Shown here: positions 3,376-18,705 of the stretch, in pieces
Position numbering within the stretch: the first letter of the stretch is position 1
Layout of the letters: each line of letters opens with the position of its first letter
Assembly (NCBI GenBank): GCA_965116325.1
Contig: OZ220675.1
Coordinates: 833,536-897,535, forward strand
From: Dehalococcoidia bacterium
GTDB taxonomy: Bacteria; Chloroflexota; Dehalococcoidia; Lucifugimonadales; JAGWBF01
DNA length: 64,000 bases
Direction of reading: 5' to 3'
Position numbers and translations under genes: made by a program
Notes under the pieces: generated by a model
The model's database searches: none
What the model was told of the DNA's origin: nothing
Seen by the model: only the letters and a program-made list of their open reading frames with translations

Positions 3376-3839
3376 CCGGCGCCGTGGTGGTGCACCATCT
3401 TCCACTGGCCATCCACATTGGTGAAGATGTTGGTAGCCCGGACGGTGAAGTTGCCCGCCCGGCCATCGAGCACCGTGGAGATGTTCTCGTGGCAGGACAC
3501 CCACGCGCAGTCACCCCTGATCTGCACCTGGGCATCTGTGATGTTGAAGTGCATCAGGGTGGTGTTGTAGAAGATATCGACCCAGCTTTGTCGCACGTCC
3601 GGCCAGCCGACAATTATGTCGGAACTGGGATGGATGCAAAGGACATCGTTGGAGTGTTCCCAGACTTTCTCCATCTCGCCGATGTCCAAGCTGCCAAAGG
3701 CTTCATAGAAGCTGTGATTGGCCGCCAGCACCCGTTCTACTTCGCCATCGTTCAATGCCCTTTGCGGCCCCGCTTTCGTGAAGATGGTCTTGTAGGCGGA
3801 TTCTACCAGAAAGTCCGACCCGGGATAACGAGGTCTCAA
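3372..3839 (-). CDS. SnoaL-like / NTF2-fold protein
   Basis: VLAANHSFYEAFGSLDIGEMEKVW ... DGQWKMVHHH is typical of SnoaL/DUF4440-type NTF2-like proteins. Convergent with the CoA-transferase, with stops overlapping in CTAG. Confidence 0.7.
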   Translation of the reverse strand: MRPRYPGSDFLVESAYKTIFTKAGPQRALNDGEVERVLAANHSFYEAFGSLDIGEMEKVWEHSNDVLCIHPSSDIIVGWPDVRQSWVDIFYNTTLMHFNITDAQVQIRGDCAWVSCHENISTVLDGRAGNFTVRATNIFTNVDGQWKMVHHHGAG

Positions 3840-3971
3840 GGTGGAGGCGCTGGCTACAATTCAACTTCCGATATGTTGAAAGGCAGCATGGCAGTGGGTA
3901 GAATAGGATGGTGTTGTGCCTAACTTGGCCAGCTATCGGGTAGCTGGCCCGGAGGGGAGCTGAGGCCCGAC

Positions 3972-4172
3972 ATGGCAAGCAAAAAAGAACCACAGGCACC
4001 GGCGCAGGCTTCAGAAAAGCCATCCGCTAAGGAACTGTATCCCGCAGTTTGCGCCTTTTGCTGCATCGAAGGCATGGTTACCACCAAGCCCGACGGCCCG
4101 CTGCCGGGCTGCAGGGGGTGGTGCGCCCACAGGTCCAGGGTCATCATGGATGACCGCTCGGTGTTCCGCTAG
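3972..4172 (+). CDS. small Cys-rich hypothetical protein (66 aa)
   Basis: ATG preceded by GGAGGGGAG about 12 nt upstream. Lys/Pro/Ala-rich N part, then CAFCC...C...C. No homolog recognised, so it could be non-coding. Confidence 0.25.
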   Translation: MASKKEPQAPAQASEKPSAKELYPAVCAFCCIEGMVTTKPDGPLPGCRGWCAHRSRVIMDDRSVFR

Positions 4173-4216
4173 CAGATGGCCGAGCCTGCGGACCTCTTGG
4201 TACTTTTCCGCCAGCC

Positions 4217-5137
4217 TTAGCGCCCATCCGCCCTTTCGTCCAGCTTCAGGACCAGTTCGTACATGAAGTTGCGCACCGAACGGCTCAGGAACTTCCCCTT
4301 CAATGTAATCAGCCCTATGTCAGTGGTGGGAAGCAGCCCGGTCAGCCTCCTTATCCCAATGCGGGAGCTATCTTCGGGCTGGATCATGTATTCATTGGTC
4401 ACGCTGATGCCCAGGCCAACCTCGACGTACTTCTTGGCCATCTCCATTATGTCCATCTCTACGGGGACGTTGTATGAGAGGCCCGCCTCCCGGAGGGCCC
4501 GCTCCAGGATCCTGCGGGTGTAGCTCGTGGGCCCCAGCATGACCAACGGCCACCGAGCGATATCGGCAAGGGTGATTTCGGCAAGATTCAGCAGCTCATG
4601 TCCCAGGGGAGTCACCAGGACGAACTGGGAGGAGAACAGGTGATTGAACTCCAGGGACGGCACTTCGGATTCCGGCCGGTTCCCCAGGGCCAGGTCCAGG
4701 TCTCCCGCTGACACCCGTTCCAGTATGTCGGTGTATGAGGTGGCCACCAGCTTTATCTGCACGCTGGGGTATCTGTCGCGAAAGGACCTCACTATGTCGG
4801 GGAGGCGATGCAACACCAGGTCCGGATAAGCCCCGATGACGAAGGAACCTCGGTGTTCGGGGTACTCCATCTGGCTCTTCAGGGCTTCCATGCTCTCGGT
4901 CAGGTTCTCGACCATGGGTTTGACTAGGTCGTAGAAGGCGTGGCCGTCGGAGGTCAGCTGGATGGGGCGCTTGATCCTGTCAAAGAGGACAACGCCGAAC
5001 TCCCGCTCCATCTTCTGGAGATGGAGAGTGACCGTAGGCTGGCCCAGGTCCAGGAAGTTTGCCGCCCTGGAGATGCTGCTGAGCCGGGCAACATGATAAA
5101 AGCTGATTAACTCTCGTACGTTCACTGATGGCGTCAT
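4217..5137 (-). CDS. LysR family transcriptional regulator
   Basis: HTH region LISFYHVARLSSISRAANFLDLGQPTVTLHLQKMEREFGVVLFDR plus a LysR substrate-binding-like C part. ATG at 5137 preferred; an alternative TTG lies at 5161. Confidence 0.9.
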   Translation of the reverse strand: MTPSVNVRELISFYHVARLSSISRAANFLDLGQPTVTLHLQKMEREFGVVLFDRIKRPIQLTSDGHAFYDLVKPMVENLTESMEALKSQMEYPEHRGSFVIGAYPDLVLHRLPDIVRSFRDRYPSVQIKLVATSYTDILERVSAGDLDLALGNRPESEVPSLEFNHLFSSQFVLVTPLGHELLNLAEITLADIARWPLVMLGPTSYTRRILERALREAGLSYNVPVEMDIMEMAKKYVEVGLGISVTNEYMIQPEDSSRIGIRRLTGLLPTTDIGLITLKGKFLSRSVRNFMYELVLKLDERADGR

Positions 5138-5257
5138 AAACAACGGGATTTGATAATACAAGCCATTATATAGTATTTCATTTCCCTGGGATGGTCCTCC
5201 GAGCTTAAGACCTCAAAGCTCCTGGTCTAATGGTGGACCTTCCCTTGCCATCTGTTG

Positions 5258-5286
5258 TTGACATGAGGATGATCTGACAACAGAAT
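5258..5286 (+). promoter_or_regulatory. candidate sigma70-type promoter for ferredoxin gene, overlapped by an 8-bp dyad
   Basis: TTGACA (5258-5263), N17, CAGAAT (5281-5286). Arms TCTGTTGT (5251-5258) and ACAACAGA (5276-5283) form an inverted repeat spanning both hexamers. Confidence 0.3.
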
Positions 5287-5333
5287 GTACCAGTTTTCAT
5301 AGCTGTACTCCTTAGGGGGCTGGCAAGGCACAG

Positions 5334-5573
5334 ATGACCTACATCATTACCGAACCGTGCATCGGGGTGAAGGACGGTGGTTGCGTCGATGTCTGTCCCG
5401 TAGATTGCATCCACACCACGGAAGATGACGATATGTACTTCATCGATCCTTCCGAGTGCATCGACTGCGGGGCATGCGAGCCGGTATGCCCCGTCACCGC
5501 CATCTTTGCCGAATTCGCAGTTCCCGCTACCTGGCATTCCTACATATCCAAGAACTACCAGTATTTCAGCTAG
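5334..5573 (+). CDS. ferredoxin (4Fe-4S/3Fe-4S, FdxA-like)
   Basis: [27 protein letters not shown] ... [13 protein letters not shown]: two iron-sulfur cluster Cys motifs of 7Fe-type ferredoxins. Confidence 0.9.
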
Positions 5574-5654
5574 CTGGCTGGGCCCAGCCAGGAACGGGCT
5601 TCATTGGGGCAGCGCCAAGACCGCCACTTTATTCTCCAGAGAGGACTCCTAAGT

Positions 5655-6167
5655 ATGGAACTTAAAGACTACATACGAGACATCGAGGATTTCCCCACGC
5701 CGGGGATACTCTTCAGAGACATCACACCCCTGCTCATGGACGCCGACGCCTTCGCCCACGCGGTGGACACCTTCGCCAACTACTATAGTGGAAGGGACAT
5801 CACCGCAGTCATGGCTGTCGAGGCTAGAGGGTTCCTCCTAGCCGCCCCCATGGCGTACCGGATGCGAAAACCTCTGGTCCTGGCGAGGAAGGAAGGAAAG
5901 CTCCCCGCCGAGTCCTACAGAATTGAGTACTCCCTCGAATATGGCACCAACGTGATGGAAGTGCACAGGGACAGCGTAGTTGCCGGGGACAATGTGCTGA
6001 TCGTGGACGATGTCCTGGCGACGGGAGGCACCATGGCGGCAGCCATCCGCCTGGTGGAGGAGGCCGGAGCGACCGTTGCAGGCCTGGCACTGCTGATGGA
6101 GCTGACGGCGCTGGAGGGCAGGGAACACTTGGCCGGATACGAGGTGTTCACCCTAATGCAGTACTAG
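5655..6167 (+). CDS. apt: adenine phosphoribosyltransferase
   Basis: MELKDYIRDIEDFPTPGILFRDITPLL and the PRPP motif VLIVDDVLATGGT. ATG at 5655 with GAGAGG upstream; the listed ORF start at 5604 is an N-terminal over-extension. Confidence 0.9.
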   Translation: MELKDYIRDIEDFPTPGILFRDITPLLMDADAFAHAVDTFANYYSGRDITAVMAVEARGFLLAAPMAYRMRKPLVLARKEGKLPAESYRIEYSLEYGTNVMEVHRDSVVAGDNVLIVDDVLATGGTMAAAIRLVEEAGATVAGLALLMELTALEGREHLAGYEVFTLMQY

Positions 6168-6223
6168 GGACTACCGGCGCCGGGGCTGGCAGGACTCCAG
6201 CACCCGAAAGAAAGGAAGCGAGA

Positions 6224-7063
6224 ATGGCGGACCGCACCAGTGTCGGAGATGTGGAAATCCTCTCTTTCATCGACATGGTCCCCCCACCCTACGACCCGGA
6301 GGGGTTCTTCCCCGACGTGAAACGCAGCCAGTGGCAGCCTTATGAGTCCGACCACCTGGAGAACGGCAACTTGCAGCTCTACTACGGGTGCTTCGCCCTC
6401 CGCTCCAGCGGCCAGACCATCCTGGTGGATACGGGGATGGGGCCCGGGCCCCATCCGACCCGCGGAAACCTGACGGGCCATCTAGTGCCCCTTCTAAGGG
6501 AACAGGGTATCGGGCCCGAGGATGTAAACATTGTCGTGCACACCCACCTGCACCCTGACCATGTGGGCTGGAACGTAACCCAGGAAGACGGGAAGCCCAA
6601 GGCCACCTTCCCCAAAGCCAGGTACCTTGTGCCCCGCAAGGACTGGAGCTACTTCACCCAGGAAGATGTCCTGGCATCGGCCGCCCACGTCCGGGACAAC
6701 GTGGTCCCCCTGCAGGATTTGGGAGCCATGGACATCATCGACGAGGAACACACCATCACCTCCGAGGTCACGACCATACCCACGCCGGGGCACACGCCGG
6801 GCCACCTCAACGTCCTGATCTCTTCAGGCGGGGAGAAAGGCATCCTGGTTGGCGACCTGCTCCACAGCAAGGTACAGGTGCAGGAGCCGGCTTGGTGCTC
6901 CAGGGCGGACATCGACAAGGCCACCGGCCAGCGCAGCCGGGAGGATATGCTGGAGCGCATCGAGCGCGAAGGGATGCTGGTGGCCGCGGGCCACTTCAAA
7001 CCCGACGAGCACTTCGGTCACGTCGTACGCATCCAGGGCAGGCGCTACTGGCAGGTCCTCTAG
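6224..7063 (+). CDS. MBL-fold metallo-hydrolase
   Basis: HxHxDH motif VHTHLHPDHVGWN, later TPGHTPGH and a C-terminal His/Asp ligand region. Confidence 0.85.
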   Translation: MADRTSVGDVEILSFIDMVPPPYDPEGFFPDVKRSQWQPYESDHLENGNLQLYYGCFALRSSGQTILVDTGMGPGPHPTRGNLTGHLVPLLREQGIGPEDVNIVVHTHLHPDHVGWNVTQEDGKPKATFPKARYLVPRKDWSYFTQEDVLASAAHVRDNVVPLQDLGAMDIIDEEHTITSEVTTIPTPGHTPGHLNVLISSGGEKGILVGDLLHSKVQVQEPAWCSRADIDKATGQRSREDMLERIEREGMLVAAGHFKPDEHFGHVVRIQGRRYWQVL

Positions 7064-11070: not shown

Positions 11071-11865
11071 TTACGCCACGCCGGCTTTGACACCCCGGAA
11101 CAGCTCGTCGGCTTCCTCGGCGGTGCCGCCCTCGTGGACGATGTAGCGGATGGCCCGGATCATGGCCACAGGCGCGTCATTCTGCCAGATGTTCCGCCCC
11201 AGGTTCACACCTATGGCGCCCCTGACCATGCCGTCGTGCACAAATTCGAACACCTCCCGCTCTGTGTCCACCTGGGGCCCCCCGGCCATGATGACCGGCA
11301 CGGGACAGCCCTCCACCACCTTTTCGAACTCCTCGCACCAGTAGGTCTTCACCACCTTGGCCCCCAGCTCAGCCGCGATGCGGCAGCACAGGCCCAGGTA
11401 GCGGGCATCCCGCTTCTCCATCTCGCGGCCCACGGCCGTCACCGCCATCACGGGGATGCCGTACCGCTCCCCCTCGCTGACCAGGGAAGACAGGTTCAGG
11501 AGGTTCTCCTTTTCGTAGTCGGACCCGATGAACACCGAAATGCCCACCGCCGATGCGTTCAGGCGGATCGCCTCCTCCATGGGTGTGGTGATGCCCTCGT
11601 TGGCCAGGTCGTTGCCCACCATGCTGGTCCCGCCGGACACGCGCAGGACGATGGGCTTGGCCTTGGCGGGAGGAATGGCGGAGCGGAGGACTCCCCGGGT
11701 CACGAAGACGGCATCGGAGTAGGGCAGCAGGGGTTCCAGGGTCTGCCAGGGGCTCTCCAAGCTCCTGGTGGGTCCCTGGAAATAGCCGTGATCGATGGGC
11801 ATGAACAAGCATCGGCCATCGGAAGGAATCACCTGGGCCAGCCGGTTCTCCATTCCCCAGTCCAT
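11071..11865 (-). CDS. class I aldolase, DhnA/FbaB/LsrF-type (DeoC/LacD superfamily)
   Basis: MPIDHGYFQGP opening and a Schiff-base lysine context AAELGAKVVKTYW, typical of archaeal-type class I FBP aldolase / ADH synthase / LsrF relatives. Confidence 0.85.
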   Translation of the reverse strand: MDWGMENRLAQVIPSDGRCLFMPIDHGYFQGPTRSLESPWQTLEPLLPYSDAVFVTRGVLRSAIPPAKAKPIVLRVSGGTSMVGNDLANEGITTPMEEAIRLNASAVGISVFIGSDYEKENLLNLSSLVSEGERYGIPVMAVTAVGREMEKRDARYLGLCCRIAAELGAKVVKTYWCEEFEKVVEGCPVPVIMAGGPQVDTEREVFEFVHDGMVRGAIGVNLGRNIWQNDAPVAMIRAIRYIVHEGGTAEEADELFRGVKAGVA

Positions 11866-12097: not shown

Positions 12098-12853
12098 CTA
12101 CCCGGACGGCAGCGTGAACTCCACCACCATGCCCGGCGCCAGCTCCAGCTCGGCGGCGAGTCCGGCGTTGACCTCCACAGCGTACTGGGCGGGTGAAGTG
12201 GAGCGGTATAGCGTGAGCTGGCCGGTGGGAACTCCTGGCTGGGGGTGCATGGTGTGGATGTTGACGATGCGGCGCTCCTGGTCCAGGAACATGATGTCCA
12301 AGGGTATCAGGGTCTCTTTCATCCAGAAGGACAATGTGGACTCCTGGGAGAAGACGAAGAGCATCCCGCCGTCGGGGGACAGAGATTCGCGGTTGGAGAG
12401 CCCGCGACTACGCTCCTGGGGGGTTATGGCCAGCTCCAGGATGAAGGTCTCCCCGGCGATGATGGCCTGCACCGAGCCCTCGGGAATTGGGGTCGGAGTG
12501 GGAACAGGCGTGTCGGTAGGTTCAGCCGTGGGCGTGTTCGTTGGAACGGCTGTGGGCACAGTTGTGGGCGTCGGCACGGGGGTCGGTGAGGGAATCAACG
12601 TGGCCGTGGGCGTCGGGGTCGCTGTGGGGGCATACGTGGGCGTAGCCGAGGGAGTTGCCACGGGAGTCGGAGCATCTGTGGGCAGAGGGGTTGGCGTAGG
12701 AGTAGCAGGAATGGGGTGAGCTGTCTCTGTCGAAGGGAGCGAAACCCCCGTAGGGTCTTCGACATCCATGGCGCCATGCCCACAGGCTGCGACAACGACG
12801 ACCACTGCCATCGCCAAAGCGAGGCTGGCAAGAGAGCGCATCAGCCTAGGCAA
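12098..12853 (-). CDS. DUF192 domain protein with signal peptide and Pro/Thr-rich linker
   Basis: C-terminal [30 protein letters not shown]...YAVEVNAG matches the DUF192 pattern. N-terminal [24 protein letters not shown] is lipoprotein-like, followed by PTPTP repeats. Confidence 0.8.
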
Positions 12854-12903
12854 TTTGGGGGGAGCAGGGGTGGCATTGGTGATCTATAGGACACCGATTT
12901 GCT

Positions 12904-13707
12904 TTATCTGATTAGGGGTCTAAGTTTTTCAAGTTCTGCCGAATAATTGATGGTCTTGAATCCATGAAGAACAGCTACCATGAATGGCGGATAGAGCAAT
13001 GTGTAACTCATCTCGTCCACCGATGAGCCAAGAGCATTCGCCCCCTCGGCGGCCATTTCAGATTTATGGGTCCAGCCTGGAACCGCCTCTTGCAGGAATC
13101 CATAAATGTTCCTAAACAGGCGGGAAACCTTAGCTCTGGGTTCTCTAGACGATGCGTCTTTCGTTCCTGTTGACAGATACGAATTGGTTTCCAACAAGTT
13201 CTCTATGTTTTCCAACCCAATCTCTCTCGAATCTCCATATTCCGAGGTACGCCTGTCGTATAACCCTAACACGTCTTCGACCGCGGATTTCACTTCCTCG
13301 TCATCATTCCAATGAAACGAAGCTCTGACGAGTTTTCTGAAGCCTGCTCCCACGGAACTATCAACCACTAAGTCTCGCGATTCGCTTCCTAAGAGTGCAA
13401 AGGAATAGTAGTCCAAAAGGTGCAGGTAAAAGCAGTAGAACTCGCAACGCAAAAGGAACACACATTCCGGATCCAATTGAAGATTCCAGTGTGCCCCGAG
13501 GGACTCCACAAGGGAGTCACTCGAGGTGCGAGTTGCATTAGCTACCTTGAGATTCAGGTGGATCAATGCCTCAACGAGCCCTTCCACTCCATTGCCTAAG
13601 TTGCGAGGCACACTTTGCTCTCGCTGTCTTTCCACCTGTTTGGTTGCAGCCTCTTCCGGGTTGAAGAGTGACTGAACGATCTGTCCCAGATTTCGAAAAA
13701 CCCCCAA
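12904..13707 (-). CDS. hypothetical protein (267 aa)
   Basis: Long ORF in about 50% GC DNA (spot count), same strand as the three upstream island genes. No motif recognised. Confidence 0.5.
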   Translation of the reverse strand: MGVFRNLGQIVQSLFNPEEAATKQVERQREQSVPRNLGNGVEGLVEALIHLNLKVANATRTSSDSLVESLGAHWNLQLDPECVFLLRCEFYCFYLHLLDYYSFALLGSESRDLVVDSSVGAGFRKLVRASFHWNDDEEVKSAVEDVLGLYDRRTSEYGDSREIGLENIENLLETNSYLSTGTKDASSREPRAKVSRLFRNIYGFLQEAVPGWTHKSEMAAEGANALGSSVDEMSYTLLYPPFMVAVLHGFKTINYSAELEKLRPLIR

Positions 13708-13893
13708 AGCTCACCTCACTCAGTAAACATTTGCCAGCATACTCATTCTGACGTCGATTTGGCCATGTCGAGTCATCTAAAGCTGATCGCATATATTTGG
13801 GTTTCGGATTACACACCAGCCCATTTAACATCGTGTCCAGATACCTCGAACGAAGCTAGTGGGGAGGCCCCGGTTGCCTTCTGCGCTGTCTGG

Positions 13894-14481
13894 TCAACGC
13901 GTGATGCGGGAAGAATCCTCTTTTGCACCCAAATAGGCGGATACCATTCCGGTCCGTGTCTCGCCTCCCGAATCCATAACTACAACGGTGCGGCCTGTCG
14001 AAAGCAGTTCCTCGATATCGGACTTTACAGCTTCCTGCGTACCTGGGGGAAATGTGTTTTTCTTACCAAAATCATAAGTAGGGTGTTCCTTAACCACTAT
14101 ACCAAGTCCCTTATGATGGCAATTTAGCCACTCTTCAAACGTCAGACGATTCTTGCGTTCCGAGCAATCGTCGAAACCTCCGCAGAAACTATAGAAGGAG
14201 AATTCACTAGTCCCTTTAGCATCCTTCTTTTGGCCCAGAAGGGAGACTATTGCGATACTGGAGCCGCAATGTTCAGAAAGGCCAAGAACCCAAGAATGAA
14301 CGGCAGCGTCACTCACCTTCGCAATTTTGCTGCGTTCGCATGCCGACCTCCCCGGCCTTGCACAGGTGAAGAAATGGGAGACCCCCTTTGGGGTGTCCAC
14401 TTTCCATCGCTTGAGTCTGTAAGGTTTCTTGGGCTTAACGCCGGGAAGCTTAGTGCGCCTAGCATAACTTCTACTTGGCAC
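13894..14481 (-). CDS. dual-specificity/tyrosine phosphatase-like protein with Asp in place of the catalytic Cys
   Basis: Layout resembles bacterial DSP-like phosphatases: ARPGR..., IAIVSLL, general-acid-like HPTYDFGKKNTFPP, and P-loop position RTVVVMDSGGETRTGMVSAYL (expected VHCxxGxxRTG). Start lies 23 nt after the stop of the upstream gene. Confidence 0.5.
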   Translation of the reverse strand: MPSRSYARRTKLPGVKPKKPYRLKRWKVDTPKGVSHFFTCARPGRSACERSKIAKVSDAAVHSWVLGLSEHCGSSIAIVSLLGQKKDAKGTSEFSFYSFCGGFDDCSERKNRLTFEEWLNCHHKGLGIVVKEHPTYDFGKKNTFPPGTQEAVKSDIEELLSTGRTVVVMDSGGETRTGMVSAYLGAKEDSSRITR

Positions 14482-14504
14482 ATCACTCCCTTACAGGTTA
14501 TCAG

Positions 14505-15623
14505 CTACCGGACCTTCAGAGTACCGTCATAATTGTCCCACTCTGTAACCAGTCTTTCCGGTAACGAAAACACCACGCAGGTAAGACCATAACTACCATA
14601 GCACCACTTTTCTTCATCGAAGAAGGTCACAATTCCCTTTGGCGTGCCTTGGACGTGTAACACATCGTCCTGGGAAGAACCTCTAGTGAAATACCCTTCA
14701 GTTGTCGGTTCACTGGTCGATGGCAGCAGTAGGACCTTCAGAGTACCGTCGTAATTGTCCCACTCTGTAACCAGCCTCTCTGGTAAAGAGAACGTCACAC
14801 AGGTAAGACCATAACTACCGTAGCACCACTTTTCTTCATCGTAGAAAGTCACAATTTCCTTCGGCGTGCCTTGGACATGTAACACATCGTCCTGGGACGA
14901 ACCTCTAGTGAAATACCCTTCGGTTGTCGGTTCACTGGTCAAAGGCAGCAGTAGGACCTTCAGAGCACCGTCGTAATTGTCCCACTTTGTCACCAGCCTC
15001 TCTGGTAAAGAGAACGTCACGCAGGTAAGACCATAACTACCGTAGCACCACTTTTCCTCATCGTAGAAAACCGTAATTTCCTTCGGCGTTCCCTGAACAT
15101 GCTGCACAACATCTTGCGAGGACCCTCGGGTGAAGTAGTCCTGCCCCAGGACAGGTATTGGTGTCGGGGTAGGGACCGGCGTTGGTGTGGGTGTTGGGAT
15201 GGGGGTCGGCGTTGGCGTGGGTGTGGCAGTCGGTAGGGATGCGATACGGGTAGCCTCCTGGCTCCTGGCATACCTTTCCGCTTCCTGCTGCACTTCTATG
15301 GCTGACCGCGTGACCGCCTCCTCCAGCTCTTTTTGTCTCTGAACGGCGTCAATGGCTGCCCTGGTGGCGGCGATGTCCGGGGTGGGCCCGATGGTGGGAA
15401 AGGGAGCTGATGTTGGTATTGGAGCACGGGTCCCAACTGAGTCAGATAAGGCTGCTACTGGCACCGCACCTGCCCGCCTCACAATCGCCGGGGTCGAGAT
15501 GGGAACAGGAGTCCTTGTCGGCAGCAAACTGACGCTGCCAGCGCCTCCGCCATCTCCATTACCGTCTCCACTCCAGTTGGATGCAGCTACCATCACAATT
15601 GCTATGACAACAGCCACGCCCAC
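14505..15623 (-). CDS. membrane-anchored Pro/Thr-rich protein with three tandem 74-aa domains (probably the C-terminal part of the J-domain gene upstream)
   Basis: Hydrophobic N terminus GVAVVIAIVMVAAS, TPTPTP linker, then 3x GYFTRGSSQDDVLHVQGTPKEIVTFYDEEKWCYGSYGLTCVTFSLPERLVTEWDNYDGTLKV. The listed GTG start lies inside a TM helix and lacks a well-spaced SD. Confidence 0.7.
   Translation of the reverse strand: MGVAVVIAIVMVAASNWSGDGNGDGGGAGSVSLLPTRTPVPISTPAIVRRAGAVPVAALSDSVGTRAPIPTSAPFPTIGPTPDIAATRAAIDAVQRQKELEEAVTRSAIEVQQEAERYARSQEATRIASLPTATPTPTPTPIPTPTPTPVPTPTPIPVLGQDYFTRGSSQDVVQHVQGTPKEITVFYDEEKWCYGSYGLTCVTFSLPERLVTKWDNYDGALKVLLLPLTSEPTTEGYFTRGSSQDDVLHVQGTPKEIVTFYDEEKWCYGSYGLTCVTFSLPERLVTEWDNYDGTLKVLLLPSTSEPTTEGYFTRGSSQDDVLHVQGTPKGIVTFFDEEKWCYGSYGLTCVVFSLPERLVTEWDNYDGTLKVR
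14508..15143. repeat. 222-bp tandem repeat, about 2.9 copies, in-frame inside the CDS
   Basis: GGACCTTCAGAG(T/C)ACCGTC recurs at 14510, 14732 and 14954 (period 222 = 74 codons). Copies are about 90% identical by eye. Confidence 0.85.
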
Positions 15624-15659: not shown

Positions 15660-15992
15660 TCATCCCGGAAACGTTACTGGGGGTGGTGTGCGAGGAGGGG
15701 GTGGAGGCGACGCCCCTGTGTTTGACGCTCGGCGGGCACGATGGTCGTCTGGGGCTTCAGTTTCCTCTCGAACCTGGGCAGTTCGCCGGCGGTCGTATGC
15801 TCCACGTAGGTCGGGGTCGCTTAGAGTCCCATATGCAAGGTTCAGCCGCGTCATGATCTCGGCGGCCTCTTGCGACGGGTTGACGTCGGGATGATACAGC
15901 CGGGCGAGCCTCCGATATGCCGATTGAATTACGTCAGGATGGGCTGACGGATGGACCTGAAGAATTTCGTACAGGTCTTCAAGATCAGCCAA
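15660..15992 (-). CDS. J-domain (DnaJ-like) protein, ends at an in-frame TGA
   Basis: DLYEILQVHPSAHPDVIQSAYRRLARLYHPDVNP ... GTLSDPDLRGAYD with the HPD motif, then a Pro-rich tail. TGA at 15660-15662 is in frame with the next ORF 12 codons downstream. Confidence 0.85.
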   Translation of the reverse strand: MADLEDLYEILQVHPSAHPDVIQSAYRRLARLYHPDVNPSQEAAEIMTRLNLAYGTLSDPDLRGAYDRRRTAQVREETEAPDDHRARRASNTGASPPPPPRTPPPVTFPG

Positions 15993-16035
15993 ACTTGGTC
16001 ACCTCAATTCACGAGTTGGTTCGAGCCATCATAAC

Positions 16036-16069
16036 AAAAACCGGGCCCTTATCAGGCCCGGCTCTTTTT
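16036..16069 (-). terminator. intrinsic terminator-like hairpin (bidirectional shape) ending the 16S-trailer/TA transcription unit
   Basis: CCGGGCC (16041-47) / GGCCCGG (16055-61) with a 7-nt loop. Flanked by AAAAA (16036-40, which gives UUUUU after the hairpin on the minus strand) and TTTTT (16065-69). Confidence 0.5.
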
Positions 16070-16132
16070 GTGTGTGCTCCTTAGCCTCTGGATAGTGGAA
16101 GGAGAGGTGTTTTATCCGTTGGGAATCGGTGG
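16056..16132. repeat. direct repeat copy A (distal duplicate of the 16S trailer segment)
   Basis: 77 nt, 74/77 identical to 16782-16858, with the first 58 nt identical. Contains a second copy of the processing-stem 3' strand (16070-16109). Confidence 0.9.
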
Positions 16133-16145
16133 CTGAGCCCGCCGG

Positions 16146-16493
16146 CTACTGGGGGCGGATCCTGACTCGCCCCGGTTCGGCACTGACCAGGGTGCCGTAG
16201 CGAATCTCCCCACCATAACGGGACAGCACCATCAGGCATGCGTCCGCCTGTTGCTCAGCTCGCCAGTTCACTAGGCGAATGATTCCCGCGTGGGGCATCC
16301 CATGGAGGACTGCCAGTTCACCGAAATCTTTATCGAGGGTAACCAGCACTCGTCCTTCGTCCAAGGCACGCGCCATGATTTCGGCATCGGAGACATTCTC
16401 CGGCCACTCACCAGCCCATACGACATCGTGTCCAGCAGCCACCAGCGAATCACGCGACCCTCCCCATACACAGGCATCCAGCAATAGCCTCAC
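16146..16493 (-). CDS. PIN-like (DUF5615 / Mut7-C type) putative toxin
   Basis: MRLLLDACVW...DAEIMARALDEGRVLVTLDKDFGEL is the usual DUF5615 PIN-like pattern. Starts 3 nt after the DUF433 gene stop. Confidence 0.75.
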   Translation of the reverse strand: MRLLLDACVWGGSRDSLVAAGHDVVWAGEWPENVSDAEIMARALDEGRVLVTLDKDFGELAVLHGMPHAGIIRLVNWRAEQQADACLMVLSRYGGEIRYGTLVSAEPGRVRIRPQ

Positions 16494-16496
16494 CGG

Positions 16497-16739
16497 CTAT
16501 TCGACCACAAGGGATTCGATGCGCTCGCGTCCCACTATCCTGCGGGCGTAGATGAGACAAGCCTGGATATCCTCAGCTTCCAGCCAGGGGTATCCACCGA
16601 TGATGGTCTCGGGAGTGCTGCCGGCAGCTAGCATATCCAGAATGTGTTCGACTGCCAGTCGCCTACCCCGGACGATAGGCTTACCCTCGAAAATCTCGTG
16701 GTTGATAGTGATTCTTTCCAGTAACTTGCCTTCATCCAT
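16497..16739 (-). CDS. DUF433 domain protein, putative antitoxin
   Basis: ITINHEIFEGKPIVRGRRLAVEHILDMLAAGSTPETIIGGYPWLEAEDIQACLIYA matches the DUF433 pattern. DUF433 is the canonical upstream partner of DUF5615 genes. Confidence 0.75.
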   Translation of the reverse strand: MDEGKLLERITINHEIFEGKPIVRGRRLAVEHILDMLAAGSTPETIIGGYPWLEAEDIQACLIYARRIVGRERIESLVVE

Positions 16740-16781
16740 GCCTACACAACCTTACTGCTAGCGAAAGAGCCGGACGTATAT

Positions 16782-16858
16782 GCCCGGCTCTTTTTGTGTG
16801 TGCTCCTTAGCCTCTGGATAGTGGAAGGAGAGGTGTTTTTACCATTGGGAATCGGTGG
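16782..16858. repeat. direct repeat copy B (16S-proximal)
   Basis: See copy A. Offset is 726 bp, and the TA pair is the only content between the copies. Confidence 0.9.
16796..16835 (-). other. 3' strand of the pre-16S leader-trailer (RNase III-type) processing helix
   Basis: On the rRNA-sense strand it reads CACCUCUCCUUCCACUAUCCAGAGGCUAAGGAGCACACAC. This pairs with leader GUGUGCUC...CUGGAUAGUGGAAGGAAAGGU as 8 bp + internal loop + 16 bp + 4 bp. Confidence 0.6.
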
Positions 16859-17008
16859 GCTTTCTCAGGGGACTGCCTTCCGTGAGCCGGGGAGCTTGCG
16901 CTCAACCATCTGGCCCGGGAGTGACAGAACACCCACCGAACGACCTAGGAGGTGGACCGGCACCCATCGGGCCTCAAGGACCCGGAAAAGGTGTCGATCG
17001 TAGCTCCC

Positions 17009-18526
<1,518 letters not shown>

Positions 18527-18530
18527 GAAA

Positions 18531-18572
18531 CCTTACCTTTCCTTCCACTATCCAGTTGTTAACGAGCACACA
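18531..18572 (-). other. 5' strand of the pre-16S processing helix (leader)
   Basis: Complementary to 16796-16835, and equally to the duplicate at 16070-16109. Lies immediately upstream of the mature 5' end. Confidence 0.6.
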
Positions 18573-18607
18573 TGTTCCCACGCAGGTTCCCCTGCGGTAA
18601 GAAGGTG

Positions 18608-18636
18608 ATGATATATGCTGCCTCAACCCCTGTCAA
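18608..18636 (-). promoter_or_regulatory. candidate 16S rRNA promoter
   Basis: On the minus strand: TTGACA (18636-18631), 17 nt, TATCAT (18613-18608), about 80 nt upstream of mature 16S. Confidence 0.55.
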
Positions 18637-18705
18637 GGGGTATGACCGCGAGAGGGGAGGGAGAATGGCGACGACGCCTAATTGCGGGTTAGGGGTTAAG
18701 TCCGC

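Follow-up and report, generated by a model that had tools for sequence, protein, structure and literature searches.

Replacement-type flexible islands are exchanged via homologous recombination in their conserved flanks, and homology-facilitated illegitimate recombination joins one strong homology anchor to another end that is closed at short or no homology. Integron arrays hold promoter-less, co-oriented cassettes behind a strong promoter, each with a hairpin repeat of ~60-120 nt, and toxin-antitoxin (TA) pairs are typical cargo. Islands specific to ssrA in Dehalococcoides lie in tandem arrays behind that gene (PMC3146451), and a hypervariable region (HVR) in the streamlined genome of Pelagibacter embeds a 16S-23S pair (bioRxiv 10.64898/2026.04.03.716425). 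In Dehalococcoidia, the rRNA genes are typically unlinked (bioRxiv 10.1101/705046). Pairs of a COG2442/DUF433 protein and a PIN-like protein (COG4634) form a predicted type II TA family that is abundant in Chloroflexi, and VapBC45 of M. tuberculosis is a related DUF433-PIN_10 pair (PMC2701414, PMC5499597). Here we describe a locus of a Dehalococcoidia bacterium (assembly GCA_965116325.1, contig OZ220675.1, positions 833,536 to 897,535 of the forward strand; this 64,000-nt stretch is called the window) in which a TA pair of this family lies behind a 16S rRNA gene, bracketed by two copies of a strand of the pre-16S processing helix.

The repeated unit, which we call R, is a ~100-nt module composed of the 3' strand of the processing helix and a terminator hairpin, and it was defined by a profile built from four copies. 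We read the locus, with moderate confidence in the reading as a whole, as a recombination joint in a hypervariable islet on the 16S trailer; expression of the TA pair by transcriptional read-through is the less certain part. In related genomes, toxin and defence genes come and go rapidly at this spot, so the most likely reading of the duplication is a scar of recombination rather than proof of a new RNA mechanism. The comparison set consists of eleven related Dehalococcoidia genomes, given here by their L numbers.

The window holds a complete 16S rRNA gene (17012-18527; Rfam RF00177, model positions 1-1533, 1511.7 bits) on the minus strand, which is also the strand of the promoter, leader, repeats and terminators described below. 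No 23S or 5S gene was found within the 64-kb window, and the 16S gene is thus unlinked and stand-alone; it is the single 16S gene of the genome and forms a transcription unit by itself. Its leader (18528-18607) follows a sigma-70-like promoter (18608-18636, TTGACA-17-TATCAT) that matches the consensus at 11 of 12 positions and lies 80 nt upstream of the 16S 5' end. The preliminary description of this DNA had reported two direct repeats, identical at 74 of 77 positions and 726 bp apart, and both our repeat search and a base-by-base comparison recover them. Copy A (16056-16132, distal) and copy B (16782-16858, proximal) are the sole 77-nt direct-repeat family, 96% identical and 726 nt apart from start to start. 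Their three mismatches are grouped at the 16S-proximal end, 58 nt are identical, and the similarity ends sharply at both borders. A 33-nt core of the repeat occurs exactly twice in the 64-kb window, with 0 occurrences expected from 100 shuffles.

Because Rfam sets the 16S gene at 17012-18527 on the minus strand, the repeats belong to its trailer, whereas 18535-18572 belongs to its leader. An inverted-repeat search finds this leader segment complementary to both repeat copies (87% over 38 nt). We aligned leader and trailer from ten Dehalococcoidia loci with a whole 16S gene and counted pairs on the ungapped alignment. The leader-trailer helix comprises 33 pairs, and 90.3% of the alignment cells are paired; shifting the 3' strand by 1-3 columns lowers this share to 40-50%. 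Seven helix pairs carry compensatory changes on both sides, and the covariation score of the helix was reached by 0 of 500 shuffles, a figure that is not a probability since the loci are related. The 16-bp helix centre (CUGGAUAGUGGAAGGA / UCCUUCCACUAUCCAG) is invariant even where 16S identity is only ~82%, and the outer part co-varies. Inverted repeats, cofolding and covariation thus agree in placing the 5' strand of the helix at 18535-18572. The repeat had been proposed to be the 3' strand of this helix, so that the precursor would have two alternative 3' pairing partners. The first point holds; as to the second, the window leader is predicted to cofold equally well with either copy (-56.1 kcal/mol each, 51+55 nt), and the distal strand is a candidate second partner. 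Judged from pairing and covariation, the helix is the ordinary pre-16S leader-trailer processing stem, of the RNase III type, with cleavage being predicted.

When scanned across 185,579 species genomes, the helix-centre pattern matched 13 stretches, nearly all in Dehalococcoidia metagenome-assembled genomes (MAGs); further loci came from exact look-ups of toxin homologues and of homologues of the upstream GGT gene. We considered R as a dispersed repeat of the repetitive extragenic palindromic (REP) or miniature inverted-repeat transposable element (MITE) kind and rejected it, given so few matches and given that, in three assemblies of 1.7-2.6 Mb, a 21-mer is confined to the leader and the trailer. 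A metagenome-wide scan with the pattern gave 14 stretches, all from distant Dehalococcoidia (16S ~76-90%), each with a single trailer copy and no TA pair downstream; these served as outgroups only. L037, from the window's GGT cluster, stops at the 16S gene start and falls outside the trailer comparison. The distant Dehalococcoidia L007, L018, L021 and L027 share the helix centre and lack the extra hairpin, a U-run following directly on the helix strand; their hypA/hypB-like neighbours are on the opposite strand, and there is no TA pair. In L015, a tRNA gene lies downstream of the 16S trailer, also with no TA pair.

The two R copies of the window extend, by profile, over 16759-16866 (copy B) and 16030-16139 (copy A). 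A trailer spacer (16859-17011), 92-99% identical to that of relatives, separates the mature 16S 3' end from copy B, which includes the helix 3' strand and the 5' arm of a hairpin. The preliminary description had given the proximal hairpin no U-tract and the distal one a U-run. The distal half of this claim stands: an intrinsic terminator at 16033-16061 consists of a stem (16041-16061, -23.7 kcal/mol) and UUUUUGUU (16033-16040, rRNA strand). The proximal half needs correction, since the terminator-like hairpin at 16764-16793 (-21.1 kcal/mol) is followed by UUUCGCU on the rRNA strand, where the distal tail reads UUUUUGUUAU. A GC-rich hairpin with a U-run is therefore fully present at the distal site and weakly at the proximal one. 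At the proximal position, a run of four or five U follows the hairpin in each relative checked, and the tract is degraded in the window genome only. The terminator scan reports the distal hairpin for the plus strand alone; the probable reason is an extension of the stem by the A/U tracts. In a permissive Rfam scan of 15900-17050, we found nothing beyond sub-threshold, terminator-like noise. Within a BamE-like gene, a stretch of 19 nt (15323-15341) partially matches the terminator arm, which looks like chance.

Between the repeats, a DUF433/PIN-like gene pair on the 16S strand had been described as the only content, and open reading frame (ORF) and Pfam scans lead to the same picture: the only ORFs with family support there are DUF433 and DUF5615, both on the 16S strand. 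The antitoxin gene (16497-16739, minus strand, 80 aa) matches DUF433 (COG2442; PF04255, 73.9 bits against a cut-off of 23.6, E 8.8e-21). The toxin gene (16146-16493, minus strand, 115 aa) is intact and matches DUF5615 (COG4634, Mut7-C-like PIN; PF18480, 62 bits against a cut-off of 23.8, E 5.6e-17). The antitoxin gene comes first, with a 3-nt gap and the same orientation, a layout also found in L028, L029, L034 and L038, and the window antitoxin has 80-81% aa identity to the L028, L029 and L034 copies. Residues D6, D54 and D56 of the toxin and its TLDKDFGELA block are invariant in nine aligned homologues, the window protein included; catalytic roles for the three aspartates are assumed from the family description (PMC5499597). 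The window toxin also retains the conserved C-terminal motif. Homologues number more than 3000 at E<=1e-10. A sequence search of the PDB with both proteins matched no solved structure, and PADLOC recognised neither the TA proteins nor the PaREP1 and 208-aa proteins of relatives; its only match to candidate defence families was a 348-aa ORF of L003.

By domain content and layout, the pair is a regular member of the predicted COG2442/DUF433-COG4634 TA family, with toxicity and neutralisation as predicted functions. It shares with that family the two Pfam domains, the antitoxin-first order, the 3-nt gap and the small size. Unlike typical members, it lies 24 nt behind the terminator hairpin of the 16S unit with no recognisable promoter or operator of its own, and it is bracketed by copies of an rRNA processing-stem strand. 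A limited search of the full-text literature brought up no paper that describes either a TA pair downstream of a 16S terminator or the duplication of a processing-stem strand.

Comparison with relatives places this arrangement in a wider pattern. The genus-level clade has 16S sequences 98.7-99.5% identical to that of the window and a constant frame around the locus, which runs from GGT to 16S, R, a variable islet, DUF192 and DeoC. R is the fixed left edge of a hypervariable islet of 0-5 kb that reaches up to DUF192/deoC and carries TA and defence-type genes. DeoC directly follows R in L031, which diverges most among the members (~93% identity across the 16S region). L012 has a single R and then a 477-aa dnaJ/BamE-like gene. 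L001 and L030 have 215 nt after R, followed by a gene of the 208-aa type and a DUF4258-like/DUF2283 pair. L028, L029 and L038 have the DUF433/DUF5615 pair and then remnants of 208-aa-type genes, without a second R. In L003 (= L032), a PaREP1/HEPN-like gene is followed by a second R and then by ParB_N-type and other genes, and in L008 (= L034), a TA pair with a truncated toxin is followed by a second R-like segment and a GmrSD type IV restriction gene. The window itself has the TA pair, the second R and a dnaJ-like gene. In every relative examined, the gene that comes first after R points the same way as 16S, and a different TA allele stands directly after R in four of them (L028, L029, L038 and L034), three of which lack a second R.

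These genomes change how the duplication is to be understood. A cassette insertion or duplication had been suggested; the duplication stands, whereas a one-off insertion of the TA pair does not, the site being a hypervariable islet for toxin and defence genes. Since L028, L029 and L038 carry the TA pair without a distal R, the TA module does not in itself bring the duplication with it. Nor is the duplication specific to TA genes, as L003 holds a PaREP1/HEPN-like gene between two R copies. The preliminary description had named relatives with the duplicated trailer and no TA genes as evidence that would count against it, and L003 comes near this case. Its other expectation, a relative with one repeat and no TA pair, is borne out by L012 (16S 99.5% identical), in which R is followed by the same dnaJ-like gene as the window's distal copy. 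L012 is an exact empty site: it has one R, with flanks like those of copy B on the 16S side and those of copy A on the far side. The latter comprise the hairpin, the U-tract, an extended -10 motif (TGnTATGAT) and the start of the dnaJ-like gene. The hairpin-untranslated region (UTR)-ATG junction before the TA pair is homologous between the window and L028, L029 and L038. Because copies A and B share the L012 flanks and the TA junction matches that of L028 and L029, we read the window as a '16S-R-TA' segment joined to an 'R-dnaJ-like' segment.

The other two cases of cargo between R copies are consistent with the same kind of joint. The distal R of L003 retains the downstream junction (…UCUGUCAAACGG) that is found after the single R of L001 and L030. 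L034 is the most informative case: its R-like segment behind the TA pair (18107-18169) reads CACTATCCAGGAGTTAAGGTGCT, which is the trailer type of a distant lineage (L015, CCACTATCCAGGAGTTAAGGTGCTTTTTG; 16S identity only ~82%) and not the genome's own type (CCAGGGGCTAACGAGCAACACAG). The L034 toxin (17771-18085) has 104 aa and has lost the conserved C-terminal ~22 residues, so that the GALVTAEPGRVRIRP block is absent, and the break falls at the joint with this foreign-type segment. From these sequences, the GmrSD cargo of L034 evidently arrived along with a piece of the 16S trailer of another lineage.

Turnover at the site is very fast. The complete MAGs L030 and L034 have 100% identical GGT genes, yet their islets differ, with 208-aa-type genes in one and the TA pair, foreign-type R and GmrSD in the other, which implies that the exchange is very recent. 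The window TA pair is only 71% identical (nt) to that of its closest relative, L038, whereas GGT is 91% identical. Vertical descent from an ancestor shared with L038 was accordingly rejected for the window pair. Conversely, the L038 TA pair is 88-94% identical to those of L028 and L029, while its GGT is 80% identical to that of L034, a close relative of L028. Because the TA identities disagree with the GGT identities, we conclude that two divergent TA alleles circulate at one site.

We propose that a '16S-R-hairpin-UTR-DUF433-DUF5615' segment, as in L028, L029 and L038, was joined to an 'R-hairpin-dnaJ-like' segment, as in L012, 13 nt after the toxin stop, which would leave R on either side of the TA pair. 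The likely route would be homologous recombination anchored in the 16S gene or in R, both of which are nearly invariant in the clade, with the other end closed within the second R or illegitimately, and a dedicated integrase would not be needed. The two R copies would in turn be substrates for RecA-type deletion, and such a deletion would regenerate the exact L012-type empty site. Homology-facilitated illegitimate recombination in natural transformation (the term is used in PMC8116780 and PMC13344027) would yield such insertions, as well as the truncated L034 toxin, if it were anchored on 16S plus R. For the locus of these uncultured bacteria it is a model only.

The ssrA-type islands (PMC3146451) suggest another route. 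In tRNA/tmRNA islands of this kind, as here, a stable-RNA locus is the fixed edge of a strain-variable region, and repeats of its 3' region flank the inserts; the ssrA-type islands also contain integrase-less units and occur in the same bacterial class. R, or part of it, could then be the att site of a tyrosine or serine integrase encoded elsewhere, with the TA, PaREP1 and GmrSD units as cis-mobilisable cassettes and the R copies as attL and attR. In favour of this, three genomes (the window, L003 and L034) have inserts between direct repeats of a stable-RNA 3' flank, and an empty site with one copy is known. We nevertheless consider site-specific integration unlikely. No recombinase family was found among the islet genes of L028, L030, L031, L032, L034 and L038 or among the window islet ORFs scanned, a search that covered islets only; an IS110 upstream of 16S in L028 is the one transposase seen. 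A constant short core or crossover site is likewise missing from the three cases, whose duplicated stretches measure 77-100 nt in the window, ~71 nt in L003 and ~63 nt in L034 and do not share a 16S-proximal border. Repeats of 63-100 nt far exceed typical att cores, the TA pair occurs without a distal copy in L028, L029 and L038, and the foreign trailer type of the L034 distal copy fits homology-guided exchange better than a fixed att core. The islet further differs from ssrA-type islands in that its repeat is precursor trailer rather than mature RNA, with variable borders instead of a 20-bp core, and in that the islets examined have no integrase module and take up inserts of 0.5-0.7 kb as single cargo units.

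The Pelagibacter HVR and flexible islands share with the window islet a strain-level turnover of genes beside an rRNA gene, with no mobile-element signature, and a highly conserved rRNA flank that is available as a recombination anchor. Compared with these, the window islet is far smaller (0-5 kb) and carries toxin and defence cargo, and its joint is a processing-stem strand, which is duplicated.

The close similarity of the two R copies could instead reflect function. Single R copies across lineages are 89-94% identical, so that the 96% identity of copies A and B, which does not stand out above this range, needs no special selection; it does imply a recent joint or gene conversion. Were the duplication functional, the distal strand would be kept as an alternative or competing partner of the 16S leader, in cis (on read-through transcripts) or in trans (as the 3' UTR of the TA mRNA), and would couple the fate of the TA mRNA, or 16S maturation, to rRNA synthesis. 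The whole helix strand is in fact identical in both copies, and the differences fall in the neighbouring hairpin arm and loop and in the 16S-proximal tail. The equal predicted pairing energies, the fairly good pairing of the L003 distal copy (-43.6 vs -48.5) and the degradation of the proximal U-tract in the window genome only point in the same direction. However, most TA-bearing relatives lack the distal copy, and the L034 distal copy pairs poorly (-36.8 vs -60.4, partial sequence). A recent joining of two functional R copies from different genomes would look alike without selection, and a functional duplication seems to us very unlikely.

A chimera of co-existing strains, one with the TA pair after R and one with the dnaJ-like gene after R, could also place a second R, or the whole R-TA-R path, in an assembly. 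The sequence does come from a metagenome assembly of a strain-rich population, in which islets differ between strains with identical GGT. Yet the joint between the toxin stop and R (16133-16145 / 16132) exists in neither parental arrangement and must therefore occur in reads. Three positions, as well as the hairpin arms and loops, distinguish the two copies, and the 726-bp unit is far below long-read length; contig names of related assemblies (e.g. ctg256750_25x_c; single contigs of 2.3-2.6 Mb) suggest, without showing it, long-read circular assembly. Other samples, assembled independently, contain analogous R-cargo-R arrangements (L003/L032 and L008/L034). The R-TA-R structure is real and biologically produced, and an assembly artefact is extremely improbable.

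How the TA pair is expressed bears on the less certain part of our reading. Its ATG is separated from the proximal hairpin by a 24-nt spacer (16740-16763) that is homologous to the L028 and L029 spacers and contains no promoter-like site. A sigma-70 scan of the minus strand from the 16S 3' end to the TA start (17011-16740) found no promoter-like site, non-consensus promoters being outside its reach, so that the promoter or operator of its own that marks a type II TA pair upstream of the antitoxin was not recognised in the window. Two candidate promoters from relatives were rejected, namely TATTAT in the hairpin loop (L028), which is not conserved across the TA loci, and TTGACA after the hairpin (L028, L034 and L038), which is not conserved; neither has a partner hexamer at proper spacing. 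Because no promoter was found, the spacer is only 24 nt long and the proximal tail is UUUCGCU where the distal one is UUUUUGUUAU, it is plausible on sequence grounds that transcription started at the rRNA promoter reads through into the TA pair and stops at the distal terminator. The TA pair would then be transcribed through the weakened proximal terminator and transcription would stop at the intact distal one. In such a transcript, the proximal R, being made first, would capture the leader, and cleavage of the leader:proximal-R duplex would free the TA mRNA from the 16S precursor. The distal helix strand would then ride along as a 3'-UTR passenger.

One could take this further and see in R a dedicated docking and expression platform of this Dehalococcoidia clade, at which promoter-less toxin and defence cassettes are captured, swapped and expressed by read-through from the rRNA promoter while the second strand competes for the leader. 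If this were so, cassette dosage would track ribosome synthesis, and mRNA release or 16S maturation would be linked to the pairing partner used; the locus would then be to an rRNA operon what an integron is to its cassettes, with an RNA switch built in. We regard such a platform as quite unlikely. Integrons, whose cassettes have been described to transfer by transformation (PMC3410848), do share with the window small, promoter-less, co-oriented units, a hairpin-bearing repeat behind the unit and TA cargo. The window differs from them in having at most two repeat copies and in that the repeat has a primary cellular function. No integrase (IntI) was found in the islets examined, and R, compared by eye and with no attC-model scan, lacks paired R''/R' core sites, so that no R''/L''/L'/R' architecture of the attC type is evident.

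Several observations weigh against a recombination joint with read-through expression. The comparison rests on genomes that are all MAGs. The complete identity of 58 nt between the copies (0 differences) could also have come about by gene conversion or by selection on the distal copy, and an integrase may act in trans from elsewhere in the genome. The joint may represent a gain or a loss, and the enzymology proposed for it is putative. As for expression, a promoter unlike the sigma-70 consensus could precede the TA pair. In four other TA-bearing genomes, a normal U5 terminator hairpin precedes the pair, and read-through is therefore not an obvious general design.

Taken together, the evidence favours a recombination joint within a small islet of toxin and defence genes that evolves fast and has the 16S trailer as its anchor. 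If this holds, the 3' flank of a stand-alone 16S gene, kept near-invariant through its pairing with the leader, would double as a homology handle for swaps of TA and defence genes between strains and even between distant lineages. Flanks of rRNA precursors would then join tRNA and tmRNA genes as anchors of strain-level variation, with no need for an integrase. The locus also offers a testable case of protein-coding genes that may rely on rRNA-promoter read-through, and a natural pre-rRNA with two competing trailer strands could be used for studying the co-transcriptional choice of a stem partner. Should only the scar part be true, the window would still neatly illustrate how recombination ordinarily turns over the genes of a hypervariable islet.

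The remainder of the islet follows the distal R. A promoter-like site for the dnaJ-like gene, with the extended -10 TGTTATGAT, lies at 16028-16055 (minus strand) and overlaps the loop and U-tract of the distal terminator; its TGnTATGAT motif also follows the single R in L012. Next come a DnaJ-domain ORF (15660-15992, minus strand), which corresponds to the first gene after the L012 empty site, and a BamE-like triple-repeat ORF (14505-15623). The two are one 477-aa gene in L012 and are split in the window, where the split could reflect a frameshift, a pseudogene or a sequencing error. A tandem 30-nt repeat at 15154-15213 (77% identical) encodes a Thr/Pro-rich linker of the BamE-like protein. 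The stretch 12750-15150, which takes in part of the BamE-like gene, has a low GC content (0.47-0.52, as against ~0.62 in the surroundings). Two ORFs within it, 12904-13707 (267 aa) and 13894-14481 (195 aa), gave no Pfam match. Because the 195-aa ORF has a homologue in L028, the low-GC stretch is not unique to the window genome. DUF192 (12098-12853, minus strand) and DeoC (11071-11865, minus strand) form the conserved right edge of the islet, and this pair also closes the islet in L028, L030, L032, L034 and L038.

On the other side of the 16S gene, the space between GGT and the 16S promoter is strain-variable as well, measuring ~70 nt in the window (18637-18705). In L003 it holds a proteasome-like 232-aa gene and a 73-aa gene (5646-6883), and in L012 a 404-aa AAA-type ATPase and a 116-aa ORF (3524-5828). 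Thiolase/ChsH2-type genes occupy it in L008 (1465-5464), L028 (4777-5709), L030 and L034, and L028 alone has an extra IS110 transposase upstream of 16S.

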